Below are positions 8,096-50,591 of a stretch of 64,000 bases of DNA, one piece after another. The stretch covers positions 269,599-333,598 of the forward strand of contig JARVJZ010000002.1 in NCBI GenBank assembly GCA_029775855.1, read 5' to 3'. The stretch is from Nitrososphaeria archaeon. GTDB taxonomy: Archaea > Thermoproteota > Nitrososphaeria > Nitrososphaerales > JAAOZN01. The notes under the pieces were generated by a model, which worked only from the letters and a program-made list of their open reading frames with translations, was not told the DNA's origin and made no database searches. Each line of letters begins with the position of its first letter. The first letter of the stretch is position 1. A program made the position numbers and the translations under genes.

Positions 8096-8145
8096 CTGGA
8101 ATAAACGGCTAAAAAAGGGGTAGTAAAAGTTTTCTGATGCAAGCT

Positions 8146-9207: not shown

Positions 9208-9255
9208 ATTGTCCTCAGCCTACCATTAAGTTGGGTGATGTAAATATGCTGTGTC

Positions 9256-10773: not shown

Positions 10774-10866
10774 TTGTCATCGATATATGCTTCGACTCAG
10801 ATGCTTATATCGTTGATGGCTCAACAGCTTTGTAAAAGAACGTTTGCGTAGACGGTTTACTGACGT

Positions 10867-11154
10867 TTACACGCGCTTACCCCTTATCAGCTCAAGCTCT
10901 AAGACAACAACTTTAAAAGGTAACCCGTCTCTGCCAACTACTGTGTCGCGGTCGATATTTGCGACACGTATTTCGACGTCTCTCATGAATCTGCTTTGAA
11001 GGAGTTGAACAACTTCTACAGCCACATTAATGGCACGCCCTCTGGCGCGAATTTTTATCCTTTTTTCGCCATTGTTAAAGAGGGTTATGCAAGCTGTGAC
11101 ATAGTTAAGGACAGGTTTAGATGTGCCAACTATCACGAGCTTGGGTTGGTTCAA
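10867..11154 (-). CDS. albA: Alba chromatin protein
   Basis: KPVLNYV, IRARGRAINVAVEV. Confidence 0.9.
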   Translation of the reverse strand: MNQPKLVIVGTSKPVLNYVTACITLFNNGEKRIKIRARGRAINVAVEVVQLLQSRFMRDVEIRVANIDRDTVVGRDGLPFKVVVLELELIRGKRV

Positions 11155-30783: not shown

Positions 30784-32071
30784 CATCCTCAAGTTTTCAT
30801 TTGACGCTCTACGAGAGAGAAAGCTGAGGGCTGCATTAACTATACTTGGGATAGCAATCGGACCCGCTGCGATTGTAGCGCTTATTGGTGCAACAGAAGG
30901 TCTTAGCCATAGTGTTTCAGCGCAGTTTGATAAGATGGGTGTAACGACAATCCAAGTTATGCCGGTAGGCAGAGGCTTCACGTTTACTGATGTTGAGGTT
31001 AATACGATTCGAAATATAAAGGGTGTTAAAGAAATCTTGCCTTACTATCGGGTGAACTCTATATTACAGTACGGAGGTACAAACATTCAAGCTGCGGTAG
31101 TATCAATCAACCTCGAAAAACTAAGTATATTATTCCCAGATATCACAATAATTGAGGGTTCTATGCCACAAAGCTCAGATATGACCGCAGCCCTAATAGG
31201 ATACAGGCTGGCTAAACCGCCAGACACAGAAACGCCTCCCATCTCCCTATATCAAGTTATCACCGCTTCAATACAATCTGGCTCAACTCTCCAAGGCATA
31301 GGCGGCTCTGCTTTGCAAGCTGCTTCACTTCAGCAGCAAAGTAGGACTACTTCCAGATCACTGTTGGTTAAAGGTGTACTCTCAGAATTCGGTCAAGGCT
31401 TATTCATTAATCCCGATGATACAGTATTCGTACCTCTCGAAAGCGGTAGGTTGCTAACAGGCAGAAACCAGTACACGGGCGCCTACGTTATAGCGTCGAG
31501 TAGAGAAGTTGTCAACGATGTTACAGCCGCTATCTCTGAAATATTTGGAAATAATGTTAGAGTTATGACTGTATCATCTATACTCTCAACAATCCAAAAT
31601 ATCACGGGCACCATGAGTACCATTCTCGCCTCTATAGCCTCAATCTCTGTCGTTGTAGCATTCATGGGTATAATGACAACTTCGTTTACATCGGTTTACG
31701 AGAGGACTCGAGAGATCGGAGTTGCAAAAGCCGTAGGATACACAAACACAGCTATCTTACTCTTCTTCCTATCAGAAGCTGTGCTTACAGGGTTTATAGG
31801 AGGTGTAATCGGCTCTCTCTCAGGCGGTATAATCTCAAACTTCGTAATCTCATTATTCGGTGGTAGAATAGGCTTTGGCGCCGGCCCAATTATGGCTGGT
31901 GGGGCTAGAGCTCAGACCCAAGCTTCCACACTTCAAATAGTACCAATCATTACACCTCAACTCATCCTTATTGCAATCCTTATGGCTACAGTAGTAGGCG
32001 CTTTGGCGGGTTTACTTCCAGCTTGGAGAGCTTCTCGCCTTACTCCAGTTGAATGCCTAAGGCACGAGTAA
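30770..32071 (+). CDS. MacB/FtsX-family ABC permease
   Basis: R..LT.LGI.IG, SV.ERTREIG..KA.G, PAWRASRL.P.E.LR.E. Confidence 0.94.
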   Translation: MLLRDILKFSFDALRERKLRAALTILGIAIGPAAIVALIGATEGLSHSVSAQFDKMGVTTIQVMPVGRGFTFTDVEVNTIRNIKGVKEILPYYRVNSILQYGGTNIQAAVVSINLEKLSILFPDITIIEGSMPQSSDMTAALIGYRLAKPPDTETPPISLYQVITASIQSGSTLQGIGGSALQAASLQQQSRTTSRSLLVKGVLSEFGQGLFINPDDTVFVPLESGRLLTGRNQYTGAYVIASSREVVNDVTAAISEIFGNNVRVMTVSSILSTIQNITGTMSTILASIASISVVVAFMGIMTTSFTSVYERTREIGVAKAVGYTNTAILLFFLSEAVLTGFIGGVIGSLSGGIISNFVISLFGGRIGFGAGPIMAGGARAQTQASTLQIVPIITPQLILIAILMATVVGALAGLLPAWRASRLTPVECLRHE

Positions 32072-33577: not shown

Positions 33578-34771
33578 ATGCTCCGAAGGAGAGTTCCTGC
33601 AGCTAAACCAGCAATCAAAGTTGACCACTTTTTAGCTTCACTATTTGTTGCGTCTATAGCCTTCTACCTTTATTCTTCTCAGCAGTTGTTGCTTGGAGCT
33701 ATTATAGCGCCTATAAGTGGGGTCTTTACTTTCTTGGCGGTTGTACGCGGCAAAACCTCGCGTATGAGAAGCATATTTGTGGCAGTTCTTACTTTATTTG
33801 TGTGGATAACTTTCGCTGCTTTCTTGTATCAGCTGGGGAACTATCTTGATCTGTGGATTTCAAGGCATGAGCGTATATCTATTTTGCCATCCGCTCTTTC
33901 TGGCTCTGGATATATCTCAATAATCTGTCCTTTTCTTATACCAGCAAGTGTAGGAAACCAGATTTATATTTCTGTTCCTATCTATATGAAGTTCTTTGCT
34001 GAGTTCCCACTTAGCTTGAGCACCTTTCTACTTGTATTTGCTTTCTTTATGGTAAGTGCTTTTCTACTTGGTAAGGGTTGGTGCGGTTGGCTCTGCCCTT
34101 TCGGTGGGTTAGGCGAAGTAGCTAGACACGCAAAAGTCTTCACTAAGATATATAATGCTCTGAGGCGTCCACTTCTGAAGCTAACGACTATCAAATTTTC
34201 AGACGCTACACCTGCGAAGGCTACGCAACTATTTTTTGACTTGAAATATGCAATATTGTTTGTAACCGTCTTACTCTCTTTACTCTTTGCTGTGCAGTGG
34301 CTCTGTGTTTTTTGCTGGGCTGGTATACTATCTTGGGTATCTCCATCTCTAAACCTATCTATAGCAGTAGCAATTCTCTTAATATTTTTTGTCGCTCTAC
34401 CCCTTCTTAGCAGAAGAAAGTGGTGCCACTTCATCTGCCCGCTAGGTGCGGCTTTAAGCCTAATCGACAAAGCCGCGCCGTTTAAGATTAGGGTTAAGGA
34501 TGATCATTGTACCGATTGTGGTGTATGTTCAACTCTCTGTCCAACGTTTGCGATCCAACATAGTGAAGGTGGAGGTGTTAAGATAACGGACACTTGTGAT
34601 AAATGTTTAGTATGTGTGGAGAGGTGTCCTCAAAAAGCTATAGAGCTGAAGACCTTTAATTTGAATATCGAGCCTAAGATATATTTGGTTACATTGAGCG
34701 TTGCTGTTGGTTTAATTTGGTTTTACTGGTTTATTGTTGTAGTGTATGAGTTAGCTCTGATCTTGATATGA
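33578..34771 (+). CDS. NapH/MauN-like polytopic membrane 4Fe-4S protein
   Basis: WCGWLCPFG, WCHFICPLG, CTDCGVC...CP, CDKCLVC...CP. Confidence 0.88.
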   Translation: MLRRRVPAAKPAIKVDHFLASLFVASIAFYLYSSQQLLLGAIIAPISGVFTFLAVVRGKTSRMRSIFVAVLTLFVWITFAAFLYQLGNYLDLWISRHERISILPSALSGSGYISIICPFLIPASVGNQIYISVPIYMKFFAEFPLSLSTFLLVFAFFMVSAFLLGKGWCGWLCPFGGLGEVARHAKVFTKIYNALRRPLLKLTTIKFSDATPAKATQLFFDLKYAILFVTVLLSLLFAVQWLCVFCWAGILSWVSPSLNLSIAVAILLIFFVALPLLSRRKWCHFICPLGAALSLIDKAAPFKIRVKDDHCTDCGVCSTLCPTFAIQHSEGGGVKITDTCDKCLVCVERCPQKAIELKTFNLNIEPKIYLVTLSVAVGLIWFYWFIVVVYELALILI

Positions 34772-37618: not shown

Positions 37619-38401
37619 ATGGATTCTGATAACGAAAAAACAAAAAGGATCACGCGTAGAAAGTTTCTAGGCGTTTCAACAGCGGCTGCAGCGGGTGGTG
37701 TTGTCGGCGGAATTATAGTGGGCGCGGTAGGAGGGTACTTAGCGGGGCAAGCAGCAGCACCACCAGCAGCAACAACTACAGTCACTACTACAAAAACAGC
37801 TACACAGACTGTTACGACTACGCAAACTGCAGCCACAGCTACTGTAACTTCGACTGTTACACAGCCAGCTACAACTGTCACACAGCCCGTTACAACTACC
37901 GTCACAACTACTCGGACTGTTGCGCCTGAAGCGGAAGTAGGATATACTTCGCTCATAACCCTAAACGTTAACGGTGTGGACTATGCACTACTTGTCGACA
38001 ACAGATGGAGTCTGGCAGATGTGCTTAGAGAGAAGCTTGGATTAACAGGCACAAAGACTGGCTGCGACCGAGGCGAATGCGGCTCTTGCGCCGTCTTGGT
38101 GGATGGTGTGCCGATGTTGAGCTGCATGCTACTAGCCTGCTCAGTAAGCGGAAGCAAGATTACGACAATCGAAGGGATAGGTACTGTGGGCAACTTAGAT
38201 AAGCTCCAAGCGTCATTCGTAAACAACGAAGGCATTCAATGCGGCATGTGTATACCTGGAATTATCGTGGTCTCAAAGGCTCTGTTGGAGAAGAATCCCA
38301 AGCCTACGGAGGAGGAGGTGAAGGAGGCGTTGAGTGGGAACCTCTGCAAGTGCGGCAACTGGCCGTTTATCGTGAAGTCTGTGTTGGAGGCGGCGAAGTG
38401 A
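37619..38401 (+). CDS. Xanthine-dehydrogenase-family 2x[2Fe-2S] subunit with Tat signal and Thr-rich linker (PaoA/CoxS-like)
   Basis: TRRKFL Tat motif, TM helix, Thr-rich stalk, GCDRGECGSC, QCGMC.PG, NLCKCG. Confidence 0.92.
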   Translation: MDSDNEKTKRITRRKFLGVSTAAAAGGVVGGIIVGAVGGYLAGQAAAPPAATTTVTTTKTATQTVTTTQTAATATVTSTVTQPATTVTQPVTTTVTTTRTVAPEAEVGYTSLITLNVNGVDYALLVDNRWSLADVLREKLGLTGTKTGCDRGECGSCAVLVDGVPMLSCMLLACSVSGSKITTIEGIGTVGNLDKLQASFVNNEGIQCGMCIPGIIVVSKALLEKNPKPTEEEVKEALSGNLCKCGNWPFIVKSVLEAAK

Positions 38402-38402
38402 T

Positions 38403-40649
38403 ATGTCGCAGCAAGAGTTTAGACTAGTAGGAAAATACAATGGGCCACGCATTACAGGAGCGAAGGCAGCAGCTGGTGCAATAAAGTATGGATGGGACTT
38501 TAACCTACCTAACCAGCTCTACATGAGGATTCTGAGAAGTCCGTATGCGCACGCAAAGGTTACTGCTGTTGATGCTAGCGCAGCGCTTGCCATGAAGGGT
38601 GTGCATGGTGTGCTTACACCCTTTGACTTCAAGGACAGCCCTGTGAGGCTTGCCGGCACAACTATGATGATACTCCCCTATGACAAGGTAAGGTATGCTG
38701 GTGAAGAGGTTTGTGCTGTTGTTGCTGATGACCCCTATATCGCTGAGGAAGCGCTATCTAAGATTAAGGTGACATATGAGCCGCTACCATACGTTTTGGA
38801 TGTTGAAGAGGCGATAAAACCTGATGCGCCACAGCTACATGAAGGCGGCAACATCGTCAGAACACCAACCACCGTCACATATAAGGTTGGTGACACTGCG
38901 AAGGGGTTTGCGGAAGCTGAGTTAACGGTTGAGTTTAAGTTAAAGAGTCAGACGATCCAGCACAATAACATAGGCACTTACGCTGCTTTAGTGAGCTGGG
39001 AGAAAGATGGAAGGCTGCACATGTGGACAGACGCTCAATACATGCACGGCCCACGCAATACGTTGGCTACAGTATTAGGTATACCTCAAAGCAGGATTTG
39101 TGTGCACGCTGAATTATGTGGAGGAGGCTTCGGAGATAAATCAGGCGCTCAGAGATGCCACATTCTCGCAGCGATCTTCGCAACAAAGACAGGTAGACCA
39201 GTTAAGTTCAAGTTAACCAGAGAAGATAATCTCCTGCAAGGTCTCCACCGCTGGACCTGCGTCACATACTTTAAGTTCGGTCTTAAGAAGGATGGAACAG
39301 TAACAGCCTTCGAAGCGAAGAACTACTCAAATGCAGGCGCATACTACAGCGTCTGGGGCTCAGGCATGGCTACAGAACAACTATACATCTACAAGTGGCC
39401 AAACTTCCTTGTAGACTGCTATGACGTCTACACAAACACACCCAGAACAGGTCCTCTAAGGTGCGTGGCAGATCCACAGAGCTGCTGGATGATAGAAACC
39501 GCTATGGATAGGCTTGCCTTCCAGCTGAACATGGATCCAATAGCCTTCAGATTGAAGAACAATATGTTCACACAAGGCGACAAGGACCCTGTCACTGGAA
39601 ACAGAATACCATCTATAGGTCAACCGCAGTGCATAAACAGAGCAAAGGAGCTTGCGGAGTGGGATAAGAAGTGGAAGCCTTGGCCCAAAACCAAACCCAC
39701 CTCAGGAGTTGTTCGCGGCATAGGCGTAGCAAACCACTGCTGCGGGCACGGTGCAGGCAGCTTAGCCAACGCAGCCGTCTTAGTGATGAACCCAGACGGC
39801 TCCCTAACAATCTACACAGGCGCCACTGATATAGGTAACGCGAGGAGAGAGCAGCTAGCCATTATCGCAGCTGAGCACCTTGGTCTACCATTTGAGAAGG
39901 TCACTGTAGCAAACTATTCAACAGACACAGGCCCAGACAGCGGAGCAACCGTTGGCAGTAGGCAGACCAAATCTGCTGGGAACGCTGTTGGCGTCGCAGC
40001 GCTTCAAGTGAAAGATCAACTGTTGGCGAGGGCTGCGGATAGGCTGAAGGTGACGAAAGAGGAGCTAAGCGTAGGCGAAGAGAAGATCTTTGTAACTAAA
40101 GACCCATCCAAATCTGTGACTATTCGTGAGTTGGTCGCGTCAGCGCCTTGGATAATCGCAGCTGGGCAGTGGATTCCTCCAGCAAACACTACGCAAAGAA
40201 CATATGGGACACACATCGCTGAAGTTGAGGTGGACTGCGACACAGGACTAGTTAAGGTGCTGAAGGTAGTAGCCGTCCACGATGTAGGTAGGGTAATCTA
40301 CCGCAAGAGCTGCCTAAGCCAAGTCCACGGAGGCATCATACAAGGTATCGGCATGGCCCTACAAGAAGAGCTACTATTCGACCCGCAGACAGGTAGACCC
40401 TATAACGCATCTATGCTAGACCACAAGATGCCACTATCTTCGCAAGCCCCAGAAATCGTAGTAGACTTCGTTGAGACCGTGGAGCAGCCTCCAGACTCAT
40501 ACAACCACGGTGCAAAAGGCTTAGGCGAACCACCAACCTCACCCATCGTACCAGCAATCACAAACGCGATAGCCAACGCCATAGGCGTATACTTCGACAC
40601 ACTACCAGTAACACCAGACAAGATCCTCAAGGCATTAGGGAAGGTGTAG
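38403..40649 (+). CDS. Xanthine-dehydrogenase-family molybdopterin subunit (PaoC/CoxL-like)
   Basis: RSPYAHA, GGGFGDK, TVGSR, SQVHGG..QG.G, KGLGEPP. Confidence 0.95.
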   Translation: MSQQEFRLVGKYNGPRITGAKAAAGAIKYGWDFNLPNQLYMRILRSPYAHAKVTAVDASAALAMKGVHGVLTPFDFKDSPVRLAGTTMMILPYDKVRYAGEEVCAVVADDPYIAEEALSKIKVTYEPLPYVLDVEEAIKPDAPQLHEGGNIVRTPTTVTYKVGDTAKGFAEAELTVEFKLKSQTIQHNNIGTYAALVSWEKDGRLHMWTDAQYMHGPRNTLATVLGIPQSRICVHAELCGGGFGDKSGAQRCHILAAIFATKTGRPVKFKLTREDNLLQGLHRWTCVTYFKFGLKKDGTVTAFEAKNYSNAGAYYSVWGSGMATEQLYIYKWPNFLVDCYDVYTNTPRTGPLRCVADPQSCWMIETAMDRLAFQLNMDPIAFRLKNNMFTQGDKDPVTGNRIPSIGQPQCINRAKELAEWDKKWKPWPKTKPTSGVVRGIGVANHCCGHGAGSLANAAVLVMNPDGSLTIYTGATDIGNARREQLAIIAAEHLGLPFEKVTVANYSTDTGPDSGATVGSRQTKSAGNAVGVAALQVKDQLLARAADRLKVTKEELSVGEEKIFVTKDPSKSVTIRELVASAPWIIAAGQWIPPANTTQRTYGTHIAEVEVDCDTGLVKVLKVVAVHDVGRVIYRKSCLSQVHGGIIQGIGMALQEELLFDPQTGRPYNASMLDHKMPLSSQAPEIVVDFVETVEQPPDSYNHGAKGLGEPPTSPIVPAITNAIANAIGVYFDTLPVTPDKILKALGKV

Positions 40650-40653
40650 AAAG

Positions 40654-41616
40654 ATGCAGCCAATCAAATATTACGAGCCTAAAACATTGGACGACGCAGT
40701 CAAGATACTAACAACCATACCTGACGCAGCAATAATCGCAGGAGGCACAGAGCTCCTACACGTAATAAGACAAAACTGCCTACCAACATTCCAGCCAACA
40801 GCACTCATCAACATAAAGAAGATCCCAGGCTTAAGCTACATCAAAGAAGAAGGCGGAACACTAAAGATCGGCCCAGCAACCACACTAGTAGACATCGCGA
40901 ACAACGAAACCGTCAAAACAAAGTATAGAGCACTAGCTATGGCAGCAGCGCACGTAGCATCACCACTCATAAGGAACATGGGAACCATAGCGGGCAACAT
41001 CTGCCAAGATGTGTGGTGCTGGTACTACAGAGCCTCAGACAACCAATTCAACTGCATCAGAAAAGGCGGAGCAATATGCTACGCCATAGGCGGAGACAAC
41101 AGATACTACCACAGCATCTTCGGCGGACCAAGAGGCTGCTACGCAGTCTGCCCCTCAGACACAGCACCAGCACTCGTAGCCCTAAACGCCACAATAGTAA
41201 CAACTAAACGAAACATACCTGCAGAAAACTTCTTCACAGAACTACAGCCAGGAAACGTTCTAGAGAAGGGTGAAATAGTAAAGGAGATTCAGATACCAAC
41301 CCCACCGGCAACATCAAAATCAGCCTTCATGAAGGCAGCCATAAGACCAAGCATCGACTTCGCCTTAGCAAGCGCAGCAGTCTGGTACAACATCTCAGGA
41401 GGAAACGTAACTGAGTCAAGAATAGTTCTAGGCGGAGTCTACTTAACACCTAAACGCGCTAAAGCAGCAGAAGACTTCCTAAAGGGTAAAGCGATAACGG
41501 GAGAGACAGCGGCGGCAGCAGGCAAACAAGCAGTAATAGACGCCATCCCTATGGTGGGCAACGCCTACAAGAAATCCGTCGCAGCAGCGATGGTGACAAA
41601 AGCCCTATTAGCGTAA
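40654..41616 (+). CDS. Xanthine-dehydrogenase-family FAD subunit with [4Fe-4S] insertion (PaoB/HcrB-like)
   Basis: AGGTEL, IRNMGT.AGN, Cys-rich insert CWYYR...C..KGG..C...C.AV.PSD. Confidence 0.93.
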   Translation: MQPIKYYEPKTLDDAVKILTTIPDAAIIAGGTELLHVIRQNCLPTFQPTALINIKKIPGLSYIKEEGGTLKIGPATTLVDIANNETVKTKYRALAMAAAHVASPLIRNMGTIAGNICQDVWCWYYRASDNQFNCIRKGGAICYAIGGDNRYYHSIFGGPRGCYAVCPSDTAPALVALNATIVTTKRNIPAENFFTELQPGNVLEKGEIVKEIQIPTPPATSKSAFMKAAIRPSIDFALASAAVWYNISGGNVTESRIVLGGVYLTPKRAKAAEDFLKGKAITGETAAAAGKQAVIDAIPMVGNAYKKSVAAAMVTKALLA

Positions 41617-41632
41617 AAGAGGCGCATAAAAT

Positions 41633-41658
41633 GAGCAGTAAAATTGTTTTTACTGCTC
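41633..41658 (+). terminator. Hairpin followed by a T-rich tract between the Mo-hydroxylase and hydrogenase genes
   Basis: GAGCAGTAAAA-TTGT-TTTTACTGCTC, perfect 11-bp stem. Confidence 0.55.
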
Positions 41659-41707
41659 CTCACCCTTTATTTTATTAAATTTTAGTTGGTATTTGTGGTG
41701 AAATATT

Positions 41708-42202
41708 TTGGTTGAAAAAATTAAACTAGCAATAGAAGACTGCGCTCTATGCGGTGGCTGTGAAATCGCCTTAGCAGACTTAGGCACAGCCCTACTCGAC
41801 CTCTTCGACAAACATATAGACCTCGTCTACGCACCAATATTAGCAAGCACAACAGATTATGACAAAGCAGACATCACATTAGTAATAGGCGCCATCAGAA
41901 GCGACCACGACTTAGAGCGAGTTAAAGCTGCGCGCGAAAAATCCAAGATAATAGTATCATTCGGAACCTGCCCAAGCTCAGCGGGCTTAGTAGGCTTAGC
42001 AAACCTCTTTGACAAAGATGAAATGCTGAAAAGAGCCTATGGCACAGAAGACCCCTCAAAACATAAAGAAACACCTAAACTCTTAGATGAAGTAAAACCC
42101 TTATCAAAATACATACACGTCGACTACATCATACCAGGCTGCCCGCCACCGCAGCCAGTCATCAAACAGATGTTGAAGAGTGTGTTGAAGGGTGTGTTAT
42201 GA
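41708..42202 (+). CDS. [NiFe]-hydrogenase small subunit, proximal-cluster domain only
   Basis: CGGCEI, GAIR, FGTC...G..GLAN, VDY.IPGCPP; ends at 164 aa; no Tat signal. Confidence 0.9.
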   Translation: MVEKIKLAIEDCALCGGCEIALADLGTALLDLFDKHIDLVYAPILASTTDYDKADITLVIGAIRSDHDLERVKAAREKSKIIVSFGTCPSSAGLVGLANLFDKDEMLKRAYGTEDPSKHKETPKLLDEVKPLSKYIHVDYIIPGCPPPQPVIKQMLKSVLKGVL

Positions 42203-43611
42203 TGAAGCAGATTGAAATAGAACCAGTAACAAGAATAGAAGGACACCTTAAAGTAATGATCCAACTCGACGATAAAGGCAATGTAGCTAAAACACAAGCT
42301 TGCTTCGCTGAATTTAGAGGCTTCGAAAAATTCGCAGAAAACAGACTAGTCACAAGGCTACCCATAATAACCACAAGGATATGTGGAGTATGCCCAGTCC
42401 CTCATCACCTAGCAAGTGTGAAAGCCATAGAAGATGGGCTTAACCTAACACCAACCGAAACTGCAGAAAAGCTCAGAGAACTTATGCTGATGGGCGAAAT
42501 ACTGGGCGACCACACACTACACCTCTTTATATTAGCAGGCCCTGACTACCTTCTCACAGACCTACCCTTAAAGCAGCGAGACATTATAGCGATCTACAAA
42601 AAGTATCCAGCTGTAGCAAAAGAAGTGGTTAAAGTAAGAGAGGTCGGTCAAAAGATAATCGAAACCATAGGTGTTCAAGCAGTCCACCCAATGACAGCAG
42701 TGCCAGGAGGCATCACCAAGCAGCTTACAGAAGATAAAAGAGCTGAGTTGCTAAACGAAGTAATCGAGGCGAAGAAGATGGTTATCGGCTGGTGGGATGC
42801 AGTGATTGCCCCTACAATCCTCAAATACATAGAAGAAAACAAAGAGCTTGGGAAAGTAGACTCAAACTATATGGCTATGAGCTACAATGATGCTCTAAAC
42901 TACTATAGAGGCGACATTAGCATCATAGATAGAAACGGTGAGTTAAAAGCAGCATTCAAACCCCTCAACTACACCAGCTACATAATAGAAGCCCCCATCC
43001 CATACTCTTATGGGAAGAGCATCACAGTAAAAGGCGAAGAACCCACCAAAGGGCTGATTCGAACAGGCGCATTAGCAAGAATCAACGTAGCCAAGAAAGC
43101 TGGAACAGATGTAGCAGACCGTCTACTGAAAGACCTTAGAAGCAAGTTTGGCTCACCTATACATGGCACACTACAGTATAACCTCGCAAGATACGTATGT
43201 CTGGTTTACTCTGCGGAGCGCTTAGAGCAGCTCCTATCAGATCCAACAATCTCCAGAGGTGACACCTTGGCTGAGTATAAGATGAAGGCTGGGGAAGGTG
43301 CTGGCTCAGTTGAAGCAAGTAGAGGAACACTCATCCACCACTACAAGTGGGATGACAACGGCTATGTAACATACGCAAATATAATCACACCTACCGTAGT
43401 AAATGCGAACGGCTTCGAAGCATCAGCCTTAAACGCCGCTTCAAGAAACATTAAGCAAGGCATCGTAGATGAAGAAAAGCTCTGGCATGAAGTTGGAACA
43501 ATTATAAGAGCCTACGACCCATGCATCTCTTGCTCAACCCACATAGAGAAGAATCTTATAATCGAAGTTTTGTCCCAAGACGGTGAAACCTTAAAAGTTA
43601 TCAAGAGGTGA
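42199..43611 (+). CDS. [NiFe]-hydrogenase large subunit, group 3c/3d-like (MvhA/HoxH-like)
   Basis: PVTRIEGH, RGFEKF, L1 TRICGVCPVPH, RGTLIHHY, L2 YDPCISCSTH plus cleavable tail. Confidence 0.95.
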   Translation: MMKQIEIEPVTRIEGHLKVMIQLDDKGNVAKTQACFAEFRGFEKFAENRLVTRLPIITTRICGVCPVPHHLASVKAIEDGLNLTPTETAEKLRELMLMGEILGDHTLHLFILAGPDYLLTDLPLKQRDIIAIYKKYPAVAKEVVKVREVGQKIIETIGVQAVHPMTAVPGGITKQLTEDKRAELLNEVIEAKKMVIGWWDAVIAPTILKYIEENKELGKVDSNYMAMSYNDALNYYRGDISIIDRNGELKAAFKPLNYTSYIIEAPIPYSYGKSITVKGEEPTKGLIRTGALARINVAKKAGTDVADRLLKDLRSKFGSPIHGTLQYNLARYVCLVYSAERLEQLLSDPTISRGDTLAEYKMKAGEGAGSVEASRGTLIHHYKWDDNGYVTYANIITPTVVNANGFEASALNAASRNIKQGIVDEEKLWHEVGTIIRAYDPCISCSTHIEKNLIIEVLSQDGETLKVIKR

Positions 43612-44441
43612 AATATGAGTTGAAGATAAGTAGAAGAAGCTTCATAGGCACAGCAGCAGGATTAGGAGGAATCACACTAGCAGCCACAACCATAACGCCA
43701 ACACCAGCTCTAGCGGTCAAACCTAAGAATGCAATGCTAATCGACGTATCCAAATGTATAGGATGCATGCGATGTGTAGCTGCTTGCGCAGAGTATCATA
43801 AGAAGTATTATGGGCAGGAAACAGACGGCACCGTATTCACAACCGTCCCTCTAGCTACCATGCAATATGGCAAAAGGCCAACTCCACAAAACTGCATGCA
43901 CTGTATAGACGCACCTTGTGCTACAGTCTGCCAAAGTAGAGCGCTAGAGCAACTCGAATCTGGTGCAGTAATTTATCATGAAGATAGGTGCATAGGATGC
44001 TTCCTCTGCACAACCGTATGCCCGTTCGAATCTATAACCACCGATCTTGAAAATAAGAAGATATTTAAATGTGATTTATGCAGCAAGATAACTGAAAACG
44101 GCGGCGCCCCTAGCTGCGTTACCATATGCCCCACACAGTCAAAGAGCTGGGGACCTTACGAAGAAAAGGTAAAGGAAGGTCAAGAAACCGCGGAGAGAAA
44201 CAAAGGTAAGCTCCTTTACGCCAATGATGCTACCGTCATCTACGTTCTATCAGAGTATGAATATGAGCAGCTTAGAAATGCGCCTGAAGTGACGGTCATA
44301 AAACCAGAGTATCCATCAGAATACAAGTCGTATTCACTTCTAGTGAAATGGTCTAGAGTCCTGTGGATACCCTTCTTAGCTGGAGCAGTATTCTACGGTT
44401 TGGCTTGGCGTGGAGGGAAGACTGTAAAGAAGGTGGAGTAA
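43608..44441 (+). CDS. Tat-exported 4x[4Fe-4S] protein with C-terminal TM anchor (HybA/FdnH-like)
   Basis: SRRSFI Tat motif, CIGCMRC..AC, CMHC..APC..VC, CIGC..C..VCP, KCDLC...P.CV..CP, C-terminal TM. Confidence 0.9.
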   Translation: MKYELKISRRSFIGTAAGLGGITLAATTITPTPALAVKPKNAMLIDVSKCIGCMRCVAACAEYHKKYYGQETDGTVFTTVPLATMQYGKRPTPQNCMHCIDAPCATVCQSRALEQLESGAVIYHEDRCIGCFLCTTVCPFESITTDLENKKIFKCDLCSKITENGGAPSCVTICPTQSKSWGPYEEKVKEGQETAERNKGKLLYANDATVIYVLSEYEYEQLRNAPEVTVIKPEYPSEYKSYSLLVKWSRVLWIPFLAGAVFYGLAWRGGKTVKKVE

Positions 44442-44442
44442 T

Positions 44443-45309
44443 ATGGCGAAGAGTAAAGAATCAGTATACCGGCTCTCCTCGCTAAAAATGGAGAAGCCTG
44501 GACTACTTGCTCTCCTATTTAAAAGAAGCCCAAGACGTAGCATCACGAGTTTCATCTTTCATCTTGGTGTATGGTGCAACATAATCACAGGGCTAATTAT
44601 GGAAGTCGCCTTCCTAACTACAGACGTATCTACTGCATTTAGCGGCTGGGGTTGGCTCTTATCGTGGGCGCATGGAATAACAGGCTTCCTCATAATAATA
44701 GGAGGCATAGGCATAATCGCTCAATACATCAGAAAACCAGCGTTTAGACTCGCATATGGCAAAGTCTTCTTCCTAGACCTTGCCTTCTTAGCAGCATTCG
44801 CCATAGTCGGGTTAATCCAATTCTTCCCAATCTTCGGCTTCCTCTCCATCAAAAGCTTCACACCAACATCCATCAAATGGCTAGGCACACTACACATGAT
44901 CATAATCTACGTCTGGATTGTAGCCTCACTAATAGCAGGAGGTGCTATAAGGCACGCCGTCGCAACAATAGCATGGAGGGTCATCAACCCAGCTTCAAAG
45001 CCAACAGGTCTCATGGTGTTTGCAGATGCTTGCGGCAAATGCGGGCGCTGCATAGAAGTCTGCCCAACATACAAAGCATTCAATAACAACCCTATAGAAG
45101 CGCCGATAATAAAGCTGAAGACATACTATCAGATGCATAGATCAAAGAAGTTCACACCAGCCGAAATACGCCTACTATCAGAGCAGTTAGCAACATGCAC
45201 GCAATGCAACTTATGCGCTGGCGTATGTCCATTCTCATTCAACTATGCTGCATTATACCAAGAAATGCTCAGGGAAGCCCAGCGGCTAGCTGTAGTGAAG
45301 ACCATCTAA
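44443..45309 (+). CDS. NarI/HdrE-like putative cytochrome b fused to a C-terminal 2x[4Fe-4S] domain
   Basis: About 4 TMs with His (FIFH, WAHG, TLHM, IRHA), then CGKCGRC..VCP and CTQCNLC..VCP. Confidence 0.75.
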   Translation: MAKSKESVYRLSSLKMEKPGLLALLFKRSPRRSITSFIFHLGVWCNIITGLIMEVAFLTTDVSTAFSGWGWLLSWAHGITGFLIIIGGIGIIAQYIRKPAFRLAYGKVFFLDLAFLAAFAIVGLIQFFPIFGFLSIKSFTPTSIKWLGTLHMIIIYVWIVASLIAGGAIRHAVATIAWRVINPASKPTGLMVFADACGKCGRCIEVCPTYKAFNNNPIEAPIIKLKTYYQMHRSKKFTPAEIRLLSEQLATCTQCNLCAGVCPFSFNYAALYQEMLREAQRLAVVKTI

Positions 45310-45311
45310 TC

Positions 45312-45818
45312 TTGCTTCAACATACTGTAAAGCAACTAAGGGATCTAGTAATCGGTAAAAATGTTATAGCAATGTGCATAGGCAGCGACTTCGGTGACGA
45401 CATCGCTGGAACCCTATTTTACAAATTAACCCACAAACATCTATCAAACATCAAAATCATATTTTGCGGCACTACTCCAGAGAAGTTTCTTACAGAAGTC
45501 AAAGGGCTAAAGCCTAACCTAGTGTTGATGATTAATGCCATAGACAGAAGTTTGAAGCCTGGTACAGTTGTTGTAGAAGATCTGCTTGAACAACATTCAG
45601 AATCGCTACTTGCACATAATTTACCGCTCTCGCTGATTGCTCACATCTTATCGTCAGAGCTCAATGACTGCCTCTTTAGGCTGATAGGTATACAAGCAGC
45701 AAAGGCTTATGGAAGCCCCTCCAAACCCGTTGTGCAGTCAGTTAAAAATTTAGCAAAAGTCATATTGGAGTTCGATAAATACGCTAAAGGAGGTTCATCT
45801 TTTGAGCAAAGGAGCTGA
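45312..45818 (+). CDS. Hydrogenase maturation protease (HycI-like)
   Basis: IG..FGDD.AG, GTTPE, HNLPL, IGIQ; start moved to TTG 45312. Confidence 0.82.
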   Translation: MLQHTVKQLRDLVIGKNVIAMCIGSDFGDDIAGTLFYKLTHKHLSNIKIIFCGTTPEKFLTEVKGLKPNLVLMINAIDRSLKPGTVVVEDLLEQHSESLLAHNLPLSLIAHILSSELNDCLFRLIGIQAAKAYGSPSKPVVQSVKNLAKVILEFDKYAKGGSSFEQRS

Positions 45819-46335
45819 AGGGTATACAAGAGCTCTCTTCCTCTTTGAGTTGTTCAAGGATGCCATGCAGGCTGAACACACTCTACGTAAAGCAGGATTC
45901 AACATTAAAACGGGTGCCCCCCCACCAGAGGTCAGAACAGGTTGTGATCTAGCTATCTCTGTACCAAGTCAAGACGTAAATGCTGCTGAAAAGGTTCTGA
46001 AAGAAAATGATATACCAATTCTTGACGTCGTATTCACATTTGAGGAGGAGCTACCACCACTCCAGCTCTCTCAACTCGTAAAGAGAGTCGACTTTGGAAA
46101 CTACTTGATGATACGTGTAGGAAACATGAAGCTGACCTTCGAAAAAAAGAGCGGCGTTATAGTAAACATTTCTGGTGGAGGATGTCCAGATATACCCCTC
46201 TTAGGGTTAAAGATGATAGGTAAGCCTCTAGATAAAGCTCCTCAACCAAATGAAGTAGGATATACACTGTGCGCCTACACGCTGCAAAAGGCATATGAAC
46301 ACGCGGTTGAAGCTTGGAAGAAGGTGAAAAAGTAG
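45802..46335 (+). CDS. DUF3343-family protein, copy 1
   Basis: AE..L, APPP..R.GCDLA, N.SGGGCPD.P, TLCA. Confidence 0.75.
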   Translation: MSKGAEGYTRALFLFELFKDAMQAEHTLRKAGFNIKTGAPPPEVRTGCDLAISVPSQDVNAAEKVLKENDIPILDVVFTFEEELPPLQLSQLVKRVDFGNYLMIRVGNMKLTFEKKSGVIVNISGGGCPDIPLLGLKMIGKPLDKAPQPNEVGYTLCAYTLQKAYEHAVEAWKKVKK

Positions 46336-46336
46336 A

Positions 46337-47209
46337 ATGCTTCTACTCACAGGCACACTACCAATCGAAGAAAAGACTCTTTTAGTAGGCACGATAAAGT
46401 TTGACGGTAAGAGCCTCTATATAGGGAACAAAGTATTTGGGAACGAGATGGTTTCAATAGGTGCTACAGCAATGATGGCCGCAGCAGCAACAACCTGTGA
46501 AACGTTGCAACTAGAACCACCGCTAGCAGCCGTAGCTGGAGACTTAGGTCAAGGAGACGGGTCTACACTACTCTATACATATCTCACAGAAGACGCTTCA
46601 ACTACAGGAGCTTCAACCATAACTATGCACTATATTCTGCCAATACGTAAAGGCTTCATGGAGTTCATAGAAATGCTGGATTATTGGGAAAAGAGACCCT
46701 TTATGATAGCGGATGCTGGTAGCATGCTCATAGCAAAAGCAACAGGAAGTTGTAAAAAATTTGACCTCTTTACACCAGACGCTGGCGAGATATGTTTCTT
46801 AGCCGATCCTGAAGCTGGTCATCCTGCTTATGTTAAGAGCATGTTCTTCGCTATCGATACAACCGATGTTCCTTACCTTATTCAAGAAGCCTACAAATAT
46901 AATAATGCGCCACGCTATCTTCTAGTAAAAGGCCCAACAGACTTCATTGTGGATGAGGGGAAGATCATTTATACCATAAGTGAACCCAACATACCTGTCT
47001 TAGAACCTATCGGAGGAACTGGTGACACAATAACTGGAATACTGTCAGCCCTAATAGGTGGAGGCTACGACCCCATAAAAGCTTGTCTTATAGCTGCTAG
47101 AGCCAACCGCCTTGCAGGTCAGCTGGCTAACCCTACACCAGCTACACGCGTAGCCGAGATAATCAATTATATAGGTAAAGCGGTGAAGCAGGTTATAGAT
47201 TCCCTATAG
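46337..47209 (+). CDS. YjeF/ribokinase-like carbohydrate kinase family protein, copy 1
   Basis: GD.G.G.GS, HY.LP, ADAG, FTPD.GE, HPAY, LEPIGGTGD. Confidence 0.8.
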   Translation: MLLLTGTLPIEEKTLLVGTIKFDGKSLYIGNKVFGNEMVSIGATAMMAAAATTCETLQLEPPLAAVAGDLGQGDGSTLLYTYLTEDASTTGASTITMHYILPIRKGFMEFIEMLDYWEKRPFMIADAGSMLIAKATGSCKKFDLFTPDAGEICFLADPEAGHPAYVKSMFFAIDTTDVPYLIQEAYKYNNAPRYLLVKGPTDFIVDEGKIIYTISEPNIPVLEPIGGTGDTITGILSALIGGGYDPIKACLIAARANRLAGQLANPTPATRVAEIINYIGKAVKQVIDSL

Positions 47210-47210
47210 T

Positions 47211-47684
47211 GTGAGTGATATGGTAAAGGTTGATAAACTCACAGCAGGCTTCTTCACAGGGCTCTGGGCTGCAATAGCTCAAGCTTGGGTGGGTGTTCTA
47301 CCACCCTCAGCCTTCGGCATCTGCTTTATTAGCCATCCAAACGACCTTTTTAACTGGACGATCAACAAACTCTTCGGCACCTCTTTCTACGTCCACGACC
47401 CCTCAATCGACTTGCCTGTGCTCACAGTAATCGGTGTGCTGATTGGTGCCTCACTCGCAACAATCCAGCATAAAGAATTTAAGTTCAAGATGCCTAGAAA
47501 CCCTCTTGACCACTATATCAATGGGTTTATGGTTGCTGTCTTTGGGCTTCTGCTAGGCTACTGCTCTGTACACATCATAATGGGGTTAATGTATGGTAGC
47601 ATAATCGCGTTAACAGGCTTCGCAGCTATGATGGTAGGTGTCACTCTAGCTGTAAGATACATAAAATGGAGGGTTCGCAGATGA
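47211..47684 (+). CDS. YeeE/YedE sulfur/selenium transporter N-half, copy 1
   Basis: PP.A.GIC...H..D, LT..G.LIGA, GYC. Confidence 0.75.
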   Translation: MSDMVKVDKLTAGFFTGLWAAIAQAWVGVLPPSAFGICFISHPNDLFNWTINKLFGTSFYVHDPSIDLPVLTVIGVLIGASLATIQHKEFKFKMPRNPLDHYINGFMVAVFGLLLGYCSVHIIMGLMYGSIIALTGFAAMMVGVTLAVRYIKWRVRR

Positions 47685-48133
47685 CTCTGACAGTATCGTT
47701 GGCCACGCTTGTGGCGGGAATCGTAATAGGCTACCTTTGGCAGCGCTCAAGGTCATGCTCCATTTCAGGCTACAGAGACTTCTTCTTATTTAGAGACACG
47801 CTCTTTATGAGGACAATCATAGGCATGGCGTTGGGTGCGCTTATAGGTTACCTGCTCTTCTACAGATTCTCATCATTAATGTCAGATTTCCCCCTATACC
47901 TACATAATGAACCAGGCGCTAACTCGATACCTACATTAATTCTAGCAGCTATAGGCGGTTTAGGATATGCTTTCTTCTCAGTTCTAGCTGAAGGATGTCC
48001 ACTTAGACAGCATGTTAACGCTACTACTGGAAACGGAATGTCTATCTTTTATTTACTGGGATTTTATAGCGGTATTCTCTTTTTCTGGTTAGTCGTCAGT
48101 GAAATCGCAGCTCTTTTCTTACGATTATTTTAG
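47666..48133 (+). CDS. YeeE/YedE transporter C-half, copy 1
   Basis: QRSRSC...GYRD..LFRD, EGCPLRQHV.A..G. Confidence 0.8.
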   Translation: MEGSQMTLTVSLATLVAGIVIGYLWQRSRSCSISGYRDFFLFRDTLFMRTIIGMALGALIGYLLFYRFSSLMSDFPLYLHNEPGANSIPTLILAAIGGLGYAFFSVLAEGCPLRQHVNATTGNGMSIFYLLGFYSGILFFWLVVSEIAALFLRLF

Positions 48134-48220
48134 CTAAAGAATTAAATAAAATGATTTATATAGGATATTTCCATTATTTTAAGGAAAAAAATAAATATTA
48201 CTACAGATACTGCATAAAAT

Positions 48221-48742
48221 ATGTCCCAAAAATTTAGAATTAAATTTAGAATTAAAACATGGCAAGCCGGTTTTGTGGTTGGCCTGCTGTCAGCACTTGC
48301 GCAGTCGATCTATAACCTTATGCCTAAAGCTGTCGAAGGGGTAGCAGCGTATAAGTTAGCACCAGTTGCCTATGGTTTCTGTATGTTTTGTCACGTCAGG
48401 GATATAGTCAACTGGTTTATGAGGAGCTTCTTCTCCTTTATGACACCAGCACCAATATCAACGATAATCCCAGCGTTAACTATAGTTGGTCTTCTAATAG
48501 GTGCCTACATCTCCGCCCTTTCCACCAAGTCCTTTAATGTTCGTAAGACCATTAACCCCGGCCTCGCGTTCGTATATGGCATCTTAGTAGCATCCTTCGC
48601 AGCAATATTGGGAGCCTGCCCAATACGTATCGCTTTAAGAGCAGCATACATAGACATAATAGCCTTCGTAGGTATTGCCGGCATGATCATAGGAGCAATT
48701 GCTGCTTCAGAAATTCTACTGAAAAGAGCCGGAGGTGATTAG
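48221..48742 (+). CDS. YeeE/YedE transporter N-half, copy 2
   Basis: P.AYGFC..CH.RD, LT..G..IGA, GACPIR. Confidence 0.8.
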   Translation: MSQKFRIKFRIKTWQAGFVVGLLSALAQSIYNLMPKAVEGVAAYKLAPVAYGFCMFCHVRDIVNWFMRSFFSFMTPAPISTIIPALTIVGLLIGAYISALSTKSFNVRKTINPGLAFVYGILVASFAAILGACPIRIALRAAYIDIIAFVGIAGMIIGAIAASEILLKRAGGD

Positions 48743-48744
48743 GG

Positions 48745-49212
48745 ATGGTGTATGCATTCGCTGTAGCAACGTTAATTATAGGTCTTATAGCTGGCTTCCT
48801 TTTCCAAAGAACTGGACAGTGCTTCATCGGCGCATATAGAGACCTATACCTATTCAAAGATACACACCTTCTAAAGGGTGTTGTCGGCTTCTTTATCGGC
48901 GCACTAATAGGATACATAATACTAAAGATAGTGGCAGAGCCTTTTACAGCAGCCAACTTTCCATGGGCATTCTACAACACATTAGCCGCAATACCAGGTA
49001 GCATAGTTAAAGCGAAGGATCTACTATCAATTCTCATCGTAGCCATAGTAGGAGGATTCGGGATAGGGTTCTTCTCGACAGCTATGGGAGGATGCCCAAT
49101 GCGAAACCACGTTATGGCAGCAGAAGGTAATCTAAGTTCTGTAGCATATGTAATAGGTTTCTGGGTAGGCATACCAATAATATATTTGATCATCAACGCA
49201 TTAGGCATCTAA
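48745..49212 (+). CDS. YeeE/YedE transporter C-half, copy 2
   Basis: QRTGQCFIGAYRD..LFKD, GGCPMRNHV.A.EGN. Confidence 0.82.
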   Translation: MVYAFAVATLIIGLIAGFLFQRTGQCFIGAYRDLYLFKDTHLLKGVVGFFIGALIGYIILKIVAEPFTAANFPWAFYNTLAAIPGSIVKAKDLLSILIVAIVGGFGIGFFSTAMGGCPMRNHVMAAEGNLSSVAYVIGFWVGIPIIYLIINALGI

Positions 49213-49249
49213 AATAGTAGGTGATAGAAGCAGCCGCGGTGCAAGGCTG

Positions 49250-49771
49250 ATGAGCGCACGAGGGTTAATCACATTCGAAGAAGTTAGACAAGCATTCAAA
49301 GCAGAATCAGTACTAAAAAAAGCAAAACACGACGCAAAGCTTGTAGTCCCCCCTCCAGAGTTCCGGAAAGGTTGTGACTTGGCTGTAGAGTTCAACATAA
49401 ATGAATTGGTAAATATAAAGCGTACACTCGCAACCAACAAAATAAAATACTCTGACATAATCTCAATAGATGCGGCTACAACTAAGACACTTGAAGTAGT
49501 CAAAGTCTTCGACTTCGGCGACTCAATTATGGTAAGGTGTGGAGCGCTGAAAATAACATTCGAAAAAGGAACTGGTCTAATACGTAACATATCAGGCGGA
49601 GGGTGTCCAGATGTACCATATCTTTACATAGAGCTTGTCGGCAAGAAACTTACAGAAGCACCTAAACCAAGGGATATAGGCTTCACCCTCTGCGCTTTAT
49701 GCCTTGATAGAGCTTATGAGGAGGCTGTAAAACTCTATGAGTCTAGTCATAGTGGGCACAGTACCAATTAA
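49250..49771 (+). CDS. DUF3343-family protein, copy 2
   Basis: AESVLK, PPP..RKGCDLA, NISGGGCPDVP, TLCA. Confidence 0.75.
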   Translation: MSARGLITFEEVRQAFKAESVLKKAKHDAKLVVPPPEFRKGCDLAVEFNINELVNIKRTLATNKIKYSDIISIDAATTKTLEVVKVFDFGDSIMVRCGALKITFEKGTGLIRNISGGGCPDVPYLYIELVGKKLTEAPKPRDIGFTLCALCLDRAYEEAVKLYESSHSGHSTN

Positions 49772-50591
49772 AGACTTTCCGCTTTACGTAGGCACACCAA
49801 AGGTCGAAGGGAACTATCTACTTCTAGATGGGTATAAAGTGCCTTGTGGTATGGGAACAGCAGCCCTATTTTTCACAGCTAACTTGGTTTGCCAAACACT
49901 AAATCTAACTCCTCCTATTTGGGTTACAGCCGGAGACATAGGTGACTCTAGTGGAAGTAGAATCCTATATCAACACCTAGCGAGTAACATCCAAAACATC
50001 AAGCCTAAAGTTCTTACTCTCCATTACCTTCTCCCCATCACCTTGTTAGCTAAGAATATGATGGAATCAATAAGAAAAGTGAAGCCAATGTTGATAGCAG
50101 ACGCAGGCTCAATGTATGTTATGAAGTCCATAGGAGCAGCCAAAGAGTTCGACCTCTTTACCCCAGATCCAGGAGAGATGGCGTTTTTAGCAGACCCTAA
50201 AGCCATACACCCTGCATATATGCAACACTACCTATTCGAATTAGACACAGCCAATATGCCGTCTCTTATCGAGCAAGCCTATAAACAAGGTAACGTGCCT
50301 AAAGTTCTGCTGGTGAAGGGTGCAATTGACTACATAGTAAAGGAAGGCAAGATACTTGCTGTTATAGATGAACCAAACATACCAGCGCTTGAACCTATAG
50401 GTGGAACAGGCGACACCATAACAGGAACCGTATCAGCTCTAATTTATAGCGGTTTAGAAGTTGAGAAAGCAGCTATAATCGCTGCTAAAACCAATAGATT
50501 AGCCGGCAAACTCGCTAATCCAACGACAGCAACACGTGTCTTAGATATTGCTCTGCAGATCCCTAAAGCTTTGGTGCAGTGTCTTCAATAG
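49737..50591 (+). CDS. YjeF/ribokinase-like carbohydrate kinase family protein, copy 2
   Basis: GDIG...GS, HYLLP, ADAG.MY, FTPD.GE, HPAY, LEPIGGTGD. Confidence 0.8.
   Translation: MSLVIVGTVPIKDFPLYVGTPKVEGNYLLLDGYKVPCGMGTAALFFTANLVCQTLNLTPPIWVTAGDIGDSSGSRILYQHLASNIQNIKPKVLTLHYLLPITLLAKNMMESIRKVKPMLIADAGSMYVMKSIGAAKEFDLFTPDPGEMAFLADPKAIHPAYMQHYLFELDTANMPSLIEQAYKQGNVPKVLLVKGAIDYIVKEGKILAVIDEPNIPALEPIGGTGDTITGTVSALIYSGLEVEKAAIIAAKTNRLAGKLANPTTATRVLDIALQIPKALVQCLQ

Follow-up and report, generated by a model that had tools for sequence, protein, structure and literature searches.

A candidate membrane-wired [NiFe] hydrogenase of group 3c descent in a Nitrososphaeria archaeon

The window analyzed here is a stretch of 64,000 nucleotides from contig JARVJZ010000002.1 of a Nitrososphaeria archaeon, and the system in question is an operon on its forward strand, at positions 41708 to 45818, that encodes a [NiFe] hydrogenase, two membrane-associated iron-sulfur (Fe-S) proteins and a maturation protease. 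The layout is outside the standard hydrogenase classes. Our reading, which we hold to be probable, is that the enzyme faces the cytoplasm, that its catalytic dimer descends from group 3c with the small subunit reduced to the proximal [4Fe-4S] domain, and that it is wired through a haem- and Fe-S-carrying membrane protein to an exported Fe-S protein. The genome is 1.5 Mb long and 98.4% complete, its nearest named relatives are metagenome-assembled genomes of Conexivisphaerales and Nitrososphaerota, and the DNA runs that contain the stretch carry the label hot springs metagenomes.

Catalytic dimer, exported protein and membrane subunit

Five tightly packed open reading frames (ORFs) occupy the + strand from 41708 to 45818, with neighbors that overlap by 4 nt or sit 1 to 2 nt apart. 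Family-level calls were made from Pfam and NCBIfam profile searches of the window ORFs, and gave the following genes:

41708..42202, + strand: [NiFe] hydrogenase small subunit, proximal-cluster N-terminal domain only (164 amino acids [aa], TTG start, PF01058 1.9e-25)
42199..43611, + strand: [NiFe] hydrogenase large subunit, MvhA/VhuA-like (470 aa, PF00374, VhuA 6.2e-99)
43608..44441, + strand: twin-arginine (Tat)-exported 4x[4Fe-4S] protein with C-terminal anchor, HybA/FdnH/DsrO/HmcB type (277 aa, Fer4_11 1.8e-17)
44443..45309, + strand: membrane subunit with four helices, four conserved His and a cytoplasmic 2x[4Fe-4S] domain (288 aa, Fer4_8 2.3e-10 at 194-264)
45312..45818, + strand: HycI-type maturation protease (about 168 aa; TIGR00142 hycI 3.9e-15, below cut-off; PF01750 3.8e-6)

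The protease was listed as an ORF from 45195 to 45818, overlapping the membrane gene, and an in-frame TTG at 45312, 3 nt past the stop of that gene, is its likely start. The FlpD/MvhD, HdrA, HoxEFU and FrhB families had no match in the same searches among the nine ORFs between 41708 and 48133.

The small subunit begins with MVEKIKLAIEDC... and has no twin-arginine motif. Its match to NCBIfam VhuG (3.3e-37) covers only positions 1 to 166 of the 286 in the model, and it aligns to residues 2 to 166 of the 299-aa MvhG chain 5odc_E (E of 1.6e-34). C15, C18, C88 and C145 are invariant in 15 sequences and are the only four Cys conserved, which, together with the extent of the MvhG alignment, indicates that the protein holds the proximal cluster only. 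In the large subunit, the NiFe ligands C61, C64, C441 and C444, as well as H447, are invariant across 23 sequences, and a C-terminal extension for protease cleavage follows DPCISCSTH. NCBIfam VhuA was matched at 6.2e-99 (331 bits, under the 800-bit cut-off) and ShyA at 9.1e-67, also under its cut-off, while the closest solved relative was MvhA (5odc_F, 1e-96), with NAD-, NADP- and F420-linked group 3 enzymes scoring below it.

Comparison with the established groups gave a mixed picture. Group 3c is represented by an MvhA/VhuA-like large subunit with its NiFe Cys pairs, although the VhuA score lies under the family cut-off; an MvhG with proximal, medial and distal clusters is missing, the alignment stopping at MvhG residue 166, and MvhD and HdrABC are absent from the operon but present elsewhere in the genome with an MvhG and an MvhA of their own. 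The small subunits of group 1 bear a Tat signal and three clusters, and those enzymes face outward. Here we found no RR motif and a single cluster domain, and the fusions described below place the small subunit inside the cell, not in the periplasm. Group 1 large subunits match only the N-terminal 120 to 200 residues, at about 1e-20 to 1e-26 against the 1e-96 of MvhA. For group 4, NuoD (4e-7) and NuoB (1e-4) were weak matches and the operon holds no Nuo/Mrp-type membrane genes.

The third protein carries SRRSFIG near its N-terminus and ends in a hydrophobic helix followed by RGGKTVKKVE. Its best NCBIfam matches were HybA (3.2e-29), FDH-beta (1.1e-27) and HmcB (6.6e-26), then NrfC and DsrO, all of them below cut-offs. 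Of 12 relatives, 11 retain the RR motif and all have the C-terminal helix with its basic tail, and sixteen Cys are conserved (15 invariant and 1 nearly so). The Tat signal, the four Cys groups and the C-terminal anchor of the HybA/FdnH/DsrO type are thus all present, an assignment that holds at the family level only.

The membrane protein matches Fer4_8/Fer4_17 at residues 194 to 266, has no Pfam match on residues 1 to 190, and gave weak NCBIfam matches to TmcB and HmcF. It carries two CxxCxxCxxxCP motifs and four His, with His40 and His77 found in 25 of 25 sequences, His151 in 23 and His171 in 22. Two haems b are probable, and the depths of these His in the membrane suggest one near each face. 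Averaged over the 25 sequences, Lys plus Arg number 7.1 in the N-terminal segment, 2.3 in the second loop and 3.3 after helix 4, whereas the first loop averages 0.0 and the third 0.1; by the positive-inside rule, the protein therefore has its N-terminus inside, four helices and its C-terminus inside, with the Fe-S tail in the cytoplasm.

An hhalign comparison with four distant proteins that combine NarI-like, Fer4 and two CCG domains gave a probability of 99.7% (E of 9.8e-26) over 250 columns, PF02665 being found on one of the four templates. This reveals a membrane domain, followed by 2x[4Fe-4S], homologous to that of EtfD/EMO/HdrDE-like proteins. The two CCG domains with non-cubane clusters of those proteins are missing, as PF02754 had no match and the protein ends at residue 288, past the ferredoxin domain. 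As judged from its sequence, it is the haem-plus-ferredoxin part of an EtfD/EMO-like design without the CCG domains. When an AlphaFold model was compared to about 48,000 chains with VIA-align, the top match was mycobacterial EtfD (9ojn_A, Z of 9.9, root mean square deviation of 5.4, 248 of 288 residues), followed by NarI (Z of 8.8), both under the Z of about 13 advised for helical bundles; EtfD was the sole top row that covered both the membrane part and the Fe-S tail. The family is small, with 30 clusters in a word-indexed search and 12 representatives at an E of ≤1e-30 among 1.84 billion in an exhaustive profile search.

Much of this had been anticipated in an earlier note on the same DNA. 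Its coordinates hold, and so do its MvhA-like large subunit, its 164-aa single-cluster small subunit without Tat signal, its Tat-exported and C-terminally anchored 4x[4Fe-4S] protein, its His-containing membrane protein ending in 2x[4Fe-4S], and its statement that the operon has no mvhD, hdrA, hoxEFU or frhB. It had also described the membrane-associated subunits as group 1 in style; a group 1 cytochrome b was rejected for the membrane subunit, which is homologous to EtfD/NarI-like proteins instead.

Recurrence of the layout and membrane sidedness

Loci were fetched both by the large subunit, which gave mostly canonical loci, and by the membrane protein. The same gene order does recur elsewhere: among the matches listed, 105 loci have a large-subunit ORF and 18 of them, the window included, carry the membrane-protein homologue beside it. 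Within that same set, the small subunit is present in 16 of these 18 loci (150 to 171 aa in 15, a 442-aa fusion in 1) and in 81 of the 87 without the membrane protein, where its median length is 312 aa and 74 copies have at least 280 aa. The shortest exception in the latter group, of 160 aa (L015), is a 67% orthologue on a contig that stops within the large subunit. For the 45 to 52% relatives (P0013-P0042), the comparison of gene context took in L108, L109 and L111. The layout is seen from 89% down to about 50% identity of the large subunit, and fused forms exist. As far as these sequences go, the small subunit, large subunit, HybA-like protein, membrane protein and protease are a conserved core, that is, a recurring unit and not a chance neighborhood.

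A FastTree phylogeny of 83 large subunits (midpoint root; all supports are of the SH-like type) placed the 15 membrane-linked ones together with P0013-P0042 in one clade of 45 rows, with an SH-like value of 98. This clade stands beside canonical group 3c. A separate group of 30 rows contains 17 from loci with long small subunits and 13 proteins of unseen context.

The sidedness of the complex is best indicated by natural fusions. In locus L108, whose large subunit is 50% identical to that of the window, a 442-aa protein consists of a four-cluster domain without signal, a hydrophobic helix, RKRKR and the small subunit; the gene order there is a Tat-signal PhsA/PsrA-like molybdoenzyme, this fusion, the large subunit, the membrane protein, the protease and a NarJ-type chaperone. 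Fer4_11 and PF01058 occur together in nine protein clusters, and nine more proteins (the 517-aa P0153 of L106 and clusters P0293-P0300) fuse a different ectodomain to a domain like the small subunit. Of these 18 proteins, 15 showed a hydrophobic 19-mer and a linker with 6 to 8 Lys/Arg ahead of the small-subunit motif; the remaining 3 do not have the exact motif used for the search. A single helix between the fused domains, followed by a basic linker, places the small subunit in the cytoplasm and the four-cluster domain outside, and the large subunit, which has no signal, would be cytoplasmic with it. We take the fusions as decisive for a hydrogenase that would lie inside and an Fe-S protein that would lie outside, and the window proteins can be read as a split form of them, with the HybA-like protein ending in ...WRGGKTVKKVE and the small subunit starting with MVEKIKLAIEDC. 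Together with the charge pattern, the conserved Tat signal and anchor, and the separate clade, they support the proposal of the earlier note that a cytoplasmic hydrogenase is joined across the membrane to an outside Fe-S protein.

One fusion design stands apart. In L106 (4580-7876), and also in L107, the 517-aa protein is made of a signal anchor, an ectodomain of ~300 aa without Pfam match, a membrane helix and the domain like the small subunit. The genes for the HybA-like and membrane proteins come after it in L106, no large subunit was found within 7-kb flanks, and P0293-P0300 are built alike. The impression is of a small-subunit domain taken over from hydrogenases for use without one.

Proposed electron path and competing readings

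In the proposed wire, electrons would pass between the NiFe site and the proximal cluster and from there to the two [4Fe-4S] clusters in the cytoplasmic tail of the membrane protein. They would then cross two haems b stacked across the four-helix bundle, putatively bound by His40/His171 near the inside and His77/His151 near the outside, and reach the four [4Fe-4S] clusters of the HybA-like protein at the outer face. The H2/H+ couple inside the cell would in this way be joined to a redox partner outside, with no quinone required. The earlier note had further suggested that the Fe-S tail replaces the medial and distal clusters. The missing cluster domain is real, and docking gave weak support for the rest: one complex prediction of the small subunit, the large subunit and tail residues 176 to 288, run on custom alignments, scored 0.50, 0.48 and 0.75 in three runs (median of 0.50), while the best of 3 controls scored 0.00. 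For calibration, 58 of 80 solved complexes passed the docking mark, as did 2 of 110 mismatched pairs; only 7 of the 80 did so at 0.60 or less, but both of the passing mismatches lay in that range. The runs have at least 26% of contacts in common and a partner per-residue confidence (pLDDT) of at least 61. On this basis, the tail might substitute for the lost clusters by docking to the small subunit.

The outside partner might differ between organisms. In the window, and in its genus, a molybdenum (Mo) enzyme of the xanthine dehydrogenase (XDH) family is encoded next to the operon, and its [2Fe-2S] subunit has a Tat motif, a hydrophobic stretch of 27 residues and a Thr/Val-rich stalk of ~70 residues, as if the enzyme were exported and tethered outside the membrane. 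Such an enzyme also adjoins the operon in L093, L095 and L096, coxM adjoins it in L002 as well, and in L097 and L102 the enzyme is nearby; from this adjacency, it is a possible partner. In L111, the genes for the HybA-like and membrane proteins are followed at once by those for a Tat Fe-S protein, again with a Thr-rich stalk, and an AOR-family enzyme (8074-10999), and in L108 the adjacent PhsA/PsrA-like enzyme is the candidate. This suggests a common inside module that would serve varied exported Mo or tungsten (W) enzymes encoded next door. In L111, the small and large subunits are transcribed divergently.

As for direction, sequence alone does not decide between outward and inward electron flow. 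We lean slightly toward H2 uptake with electrons going outward, which would consume membrane potential and could drive reductions at low potential on the outer side. With inward flow, the complex would work as an electrogenic redox loop, with oxidation outside and proton reduction inside. A specific, quinone-free version of such a loop, which we consider rather improbable, is that the exported Mo/W enzyme oxidizes a low-potential substrate outside, possibly of the aldehyde type in the case of the XDH-family enzyme, and that electrons cross through the HybA-like protein, the two haems b and the Fe-S tail to the cytoplasmic hydrogenase, which would reduce protons.

Several observations weigh against the wire. 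Outward flow would release protons inside and consume them outside and so dissipate the proton-motive force, which is odd for a respiratory uptake enzyme. A few members have Gln in place of His151, and a few in place of His171, so that two haems are not certain. The AlphaFold model of the membrane protein is poor (mean pLDDT of 62.5, 45 to 55 in the tail), a Foldseek search with it against the PDB gave no match at an E of ≤0.001 (the highest probabilities, 0.75 to 0.87, were for NarI chains at an E of about 1.1 to 1.7), and a search of the PDB with its sequence profile left the membrane part without a solved relative. Docking of the tail is weakly supported, the complex prediction having returned no interface. 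The XDH-family enzyme was not found in the examined flanks of L014, L076, L098, L099 and L103, and in the window a spacer with a possible promoter of its own separates it from the operon. Finally, a Methanonatronarchaeia hydrogenase related to this one is, in a review's account of Sorokin et al. 2017 (PMC7374477), taken to feed methanophenazine, which would agree better with an acceptor of the quinone type than with an Fe-S protein outside.

One alternative is a cytoplasm-facing hydrogenase that reduces quinone or methanophenazine through an EtfD-like membrane protein, with the HybA-like protein as a side branch or part of a separate quinol-linked reaction. The homology of the membrane protein to EtfD/EMO-like proteins and its top structural match speak for it, since EtfD passes electrons from its clusters and haem b to menaquinone (PMC13083937), and so does the methanophenazine input by a membrane-bound hydrogenase that, as a review reports, Sorokin et al. 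2017 modelled for Methanonatronarchaeia, a lineage that has both a large subunit of the clade (P0030) and the membrane protein (P0158, 38% identical). However, a HybA-like gene or a fused four-cluster domain goes with the membrane protein at all loci whose upstream DNA is covered (L109, whose contig begins inside the large subunit, is a possible exception), and four conserved His spread over both membrane faces suggest a wire through the membrane. No match to the MqnA/D family (PF02621), the one quinone route searched for, was found in the 98.4%-complete genome, which does not show that quinones are lacking. We regard this reading as unlikely, if worth keeping in mind. Less likely still is an outward-facing uptake hydrogenase whose subunits without signal would reach the outside by hitch-hiking with the Tat-signal HybA-like protein. 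H2 would then be oxidized outside, and electrons would pass inward through the haems to the Fe-S tail and a cytoplasmic acceptor, as in Hmc/Tmc/DsrMKJOP. Hitch-hiking export is established for other Tat substrates, the arrangement would conserve energy because protons are released outside, and the best NCBIfam matches of the Fe-S and membrane subunits include HmcB, DsrO, TmcB and HmcF. Yet the fusions, with one helix and a linker of 6 to 8 Lys/Arg, put the exported domain and the small subunit on opposite sides; in L108 it is the PhsA-like subunit that bears the Tat signal, the fused four-cluster domain being its usual B subunit, and no gene would provide the Fe-S tail with a partner in the cytoplasm.

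The large subunit has its best matches in MvhA/VhuA and the genome encodes hdrC-hdrB-hdrA-mvhD, so one could also think of a plain group 3c enzyme, soluble and served by the MvhD/HdrABC of the other locus, the two downstream genes belonging to an unrelated system. We give this very little credence. The other locus, on contig C1 (331021-339459, L120), is a canonical hdrC-hdrB-hdrA-mvhD-mvhG-mvhA operon with its own 324-aa small subunit and a 489-aa large subunit, 37% identical to that of the window. The small subunit of the window operon is without the entire C-terminal cluster domain. Besides, the operon genes overlap or abut, and the layout recurs over the range of identities given above and in fused forms. 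The earlier note had named subunits without an interface, together with canonical partners elsewhere, as grounds for refuting the wired reading; such partners do exist, but with a full-length hydrogenase of their own. At the 3' side of the canonical operon in L120 we also observed a 276-aa ORF without Pfam match and then an HdrD-like protein (Fer4_8 and two CCG).

Known systems, neighboring genes and significance

The wired complex that we favor would combine features of several known systems. With MvhAGD-HdrABC (group 3c, 5odc), it shares the closest solved kin of both catalytic subunits, the NiFe ligands and the cytoplasmic location, and differs in a small subunit that ends past the proximal domain, in the lack of MvhD and Hdr in the operon, in two membrane-associated partners and in its separate clade. 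HybA of E. coli hydrogenase 2 (HybOCAB) is the best NCBIfam match of the exported subunit (3.2e-29), whereas the small subunit differs from that of this enzyme in having neither Tat signal nor three clusters. In E. coli FdnGHI and NarGHI, FdnH is a Tat-exported four-cluster subunit with a C-terminal anchor, the membrane subunit holds two haems b, and the NarH clusters lead to NarG. The likeness here lies in an exported and anchored four-cluster subunit, a putative two-haem b subunit (NarI, Z of 8.8) and cytoplasmic clusters leading to a catalytic unit; the two halves would join directly without a quinone, and catalysis on the cytoplasmic side falls to a hydrogenase. HmcABCDEF, TmcABCD and DsrMKJOP of sulfate reducers have a periplasmic HybA-like Fe-S protein, a cytochrome b and a cytoplasmic Fe-S protein. 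The window subunits match HmcB, DsrO, TmcB and HmcF, all far below family cut-offs, but the operon has no cytochrome c, NrfD-type or CCG parts and its cytoplasmic end is a hydrogenase. The EtfD of Mycobacterium and the EMO of Syntrophus combine a haem b membrane domain with 2x[4Fe-4S] and CCG domains, and the window membrane protein is homologous to them over about 250 columns. It differs by the absence of CCG domains, by four helices instead of five, by a hydrogenase instead of the electron transfer flavoprotein as partner and by an exported Fe-S protein on the opposite side. The wire from cytoplasmic clusters to haem b is solved for EtfD, whose pair of cubane clusters lies about 7 A from the haem b, with menaquinone next in line (PMC13083937).

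The clade includes the large subunit P0030 of Methanohalarchaeum, and in P0158, the membrane-protein homologue, the four His and the two cluster motifs are all kept; the two proteins are three accession numbers apart. A table in the accessible text of a review lists a Methanonatronarchaeum hydrogenase 'HyaAB(D)' with a b-haem subunit 'FdhI' (PMC7374477). The enzyme is therein described as feeding methanophenazine, unlike the wire proposed here, while the large subunit of the clade and the membrane-protein homologue are shared. The earlier note had raised the possibility of a new subgroup; the clade of its own agrees with this, but a member of it has already been treated in print, as far as the available passages tell, as a membrane-bound hydrogenase, so the clade is better called unclassified than unseen. 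The main text of Ferrer et al. 2018 does not contain the word 'hydrogenase'; its supplements, possibly with Methanonatronarchaeia gene tables, were outside the search. Literature searches turned up no account of the shortened small subunit, its Tat-exported Fe-S partner, the membrane subunit of EtfD type or the fusions, a search combining group 3c, HybA, hydrogenase and archaea found nothing, and the accessible portions of the work on Conexivisphaerales/Conexivisphaera hydrogenases do not describe the layout. A 'group 3e' proposed in a 2021 preprint is, from the part of it available, an Anaerolinea-only clade without accessory genes and so not the window enzyme.

The surroundings of the operon on the + strand are as follows:

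37619..41616, + strand: XDH-family Mo enzyme with [2Fe-2S], Mo and FAD subunits (XdhA 1.5e-151, PaoA 3.4e-47, below cut-offs)
41617..41707, + strand: A+T-rich spacer of 91 bp, 5' of the small subunit, with a TTTATTTTATTAAA stretch 25 to 40 bp before the start
45802..50591, + strand: two sets of Se/S-carrier-like (DUF3343), NAD(P)HX-dehydratase-like and split YeeE/YedE genes (Pfam matches)

The spacer could contain a promoter of its own. The two sulfur-gene sets lie in tandem and differ in gene order, and the first of them accompanies the operon in relatives, where the carrier, dehydratase and YeeE genes follow the protease, whole or in part (a number of contigs break off within it), in 12 of the 26 loci with a membrane-protein homologue, at 68 to 95% identity. 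The carrier-like and dehydratase-like genes are more conserved than the hydrogenase genes themselves. Contigs from two RNA libraries of one study overlap parts of the genes for the large, HybA-like and membrane subunits, and a 325-nt contig with one difference spans the junction of the latter two; the libraries may contain DNA by carry-over, and the contigs were not counted as transcription. One DNA-run contig (X3, depth of 3.5) skips 129 bases, or 43 codons in frame, at 42245-42375 within the large-subunit gene, which may be a strain variant or an assembly artefact.

Elsewhere in the window, positions 33578 to 34771 encode a 397-aa protein with Fer4_5 and Fer4_7, of the NapH/MauN-like membrane polyferredoxin type, and the row of genes at 25574-32071 codes for an ABC ATPase, for a protein of 1370 aa that has NPCBM-associated, CARDB and MG2 domains, and for a MacB/FtsX-like permease. 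In the 1.5-Mb genome, catalytic subunits of the PhsA-like type with Mo-bis(pyranopterin guanine dinucleotide) (Mo-bisPGD) matched in at least six separate places on contigs C1, C2, C4 and C6, and one NrfD-type membrane subunit lies beside such matches on C4.

A survey of geothermal archaea, in the text accessible, describes group 3c only as cytosolic and Hdr-coupled, and sorting by large-subunit similarity would file the window enzyme in the same way. If the wired reading is right, part of the 'group 3c' of Conexivisphaerales, Methanonatronarchaeia and other archaea would instead be a membrane complex that joins H2 inside the cell to redox chemistry outside, and inferences on H2 metabolism, sulfur or metal reduction and energy conservation drawn from such genomes would change. 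It would also be a compact natural protein wire that moves electrons across a membrane to or from a hydrogenase. Should the complex run as a redox loop, proton-motive force would come from the chemistry alone, without the ion-pumping modules of group 4, and relatives would plug AOR-type or PhsA/PsrA-type enzymes into the same device.

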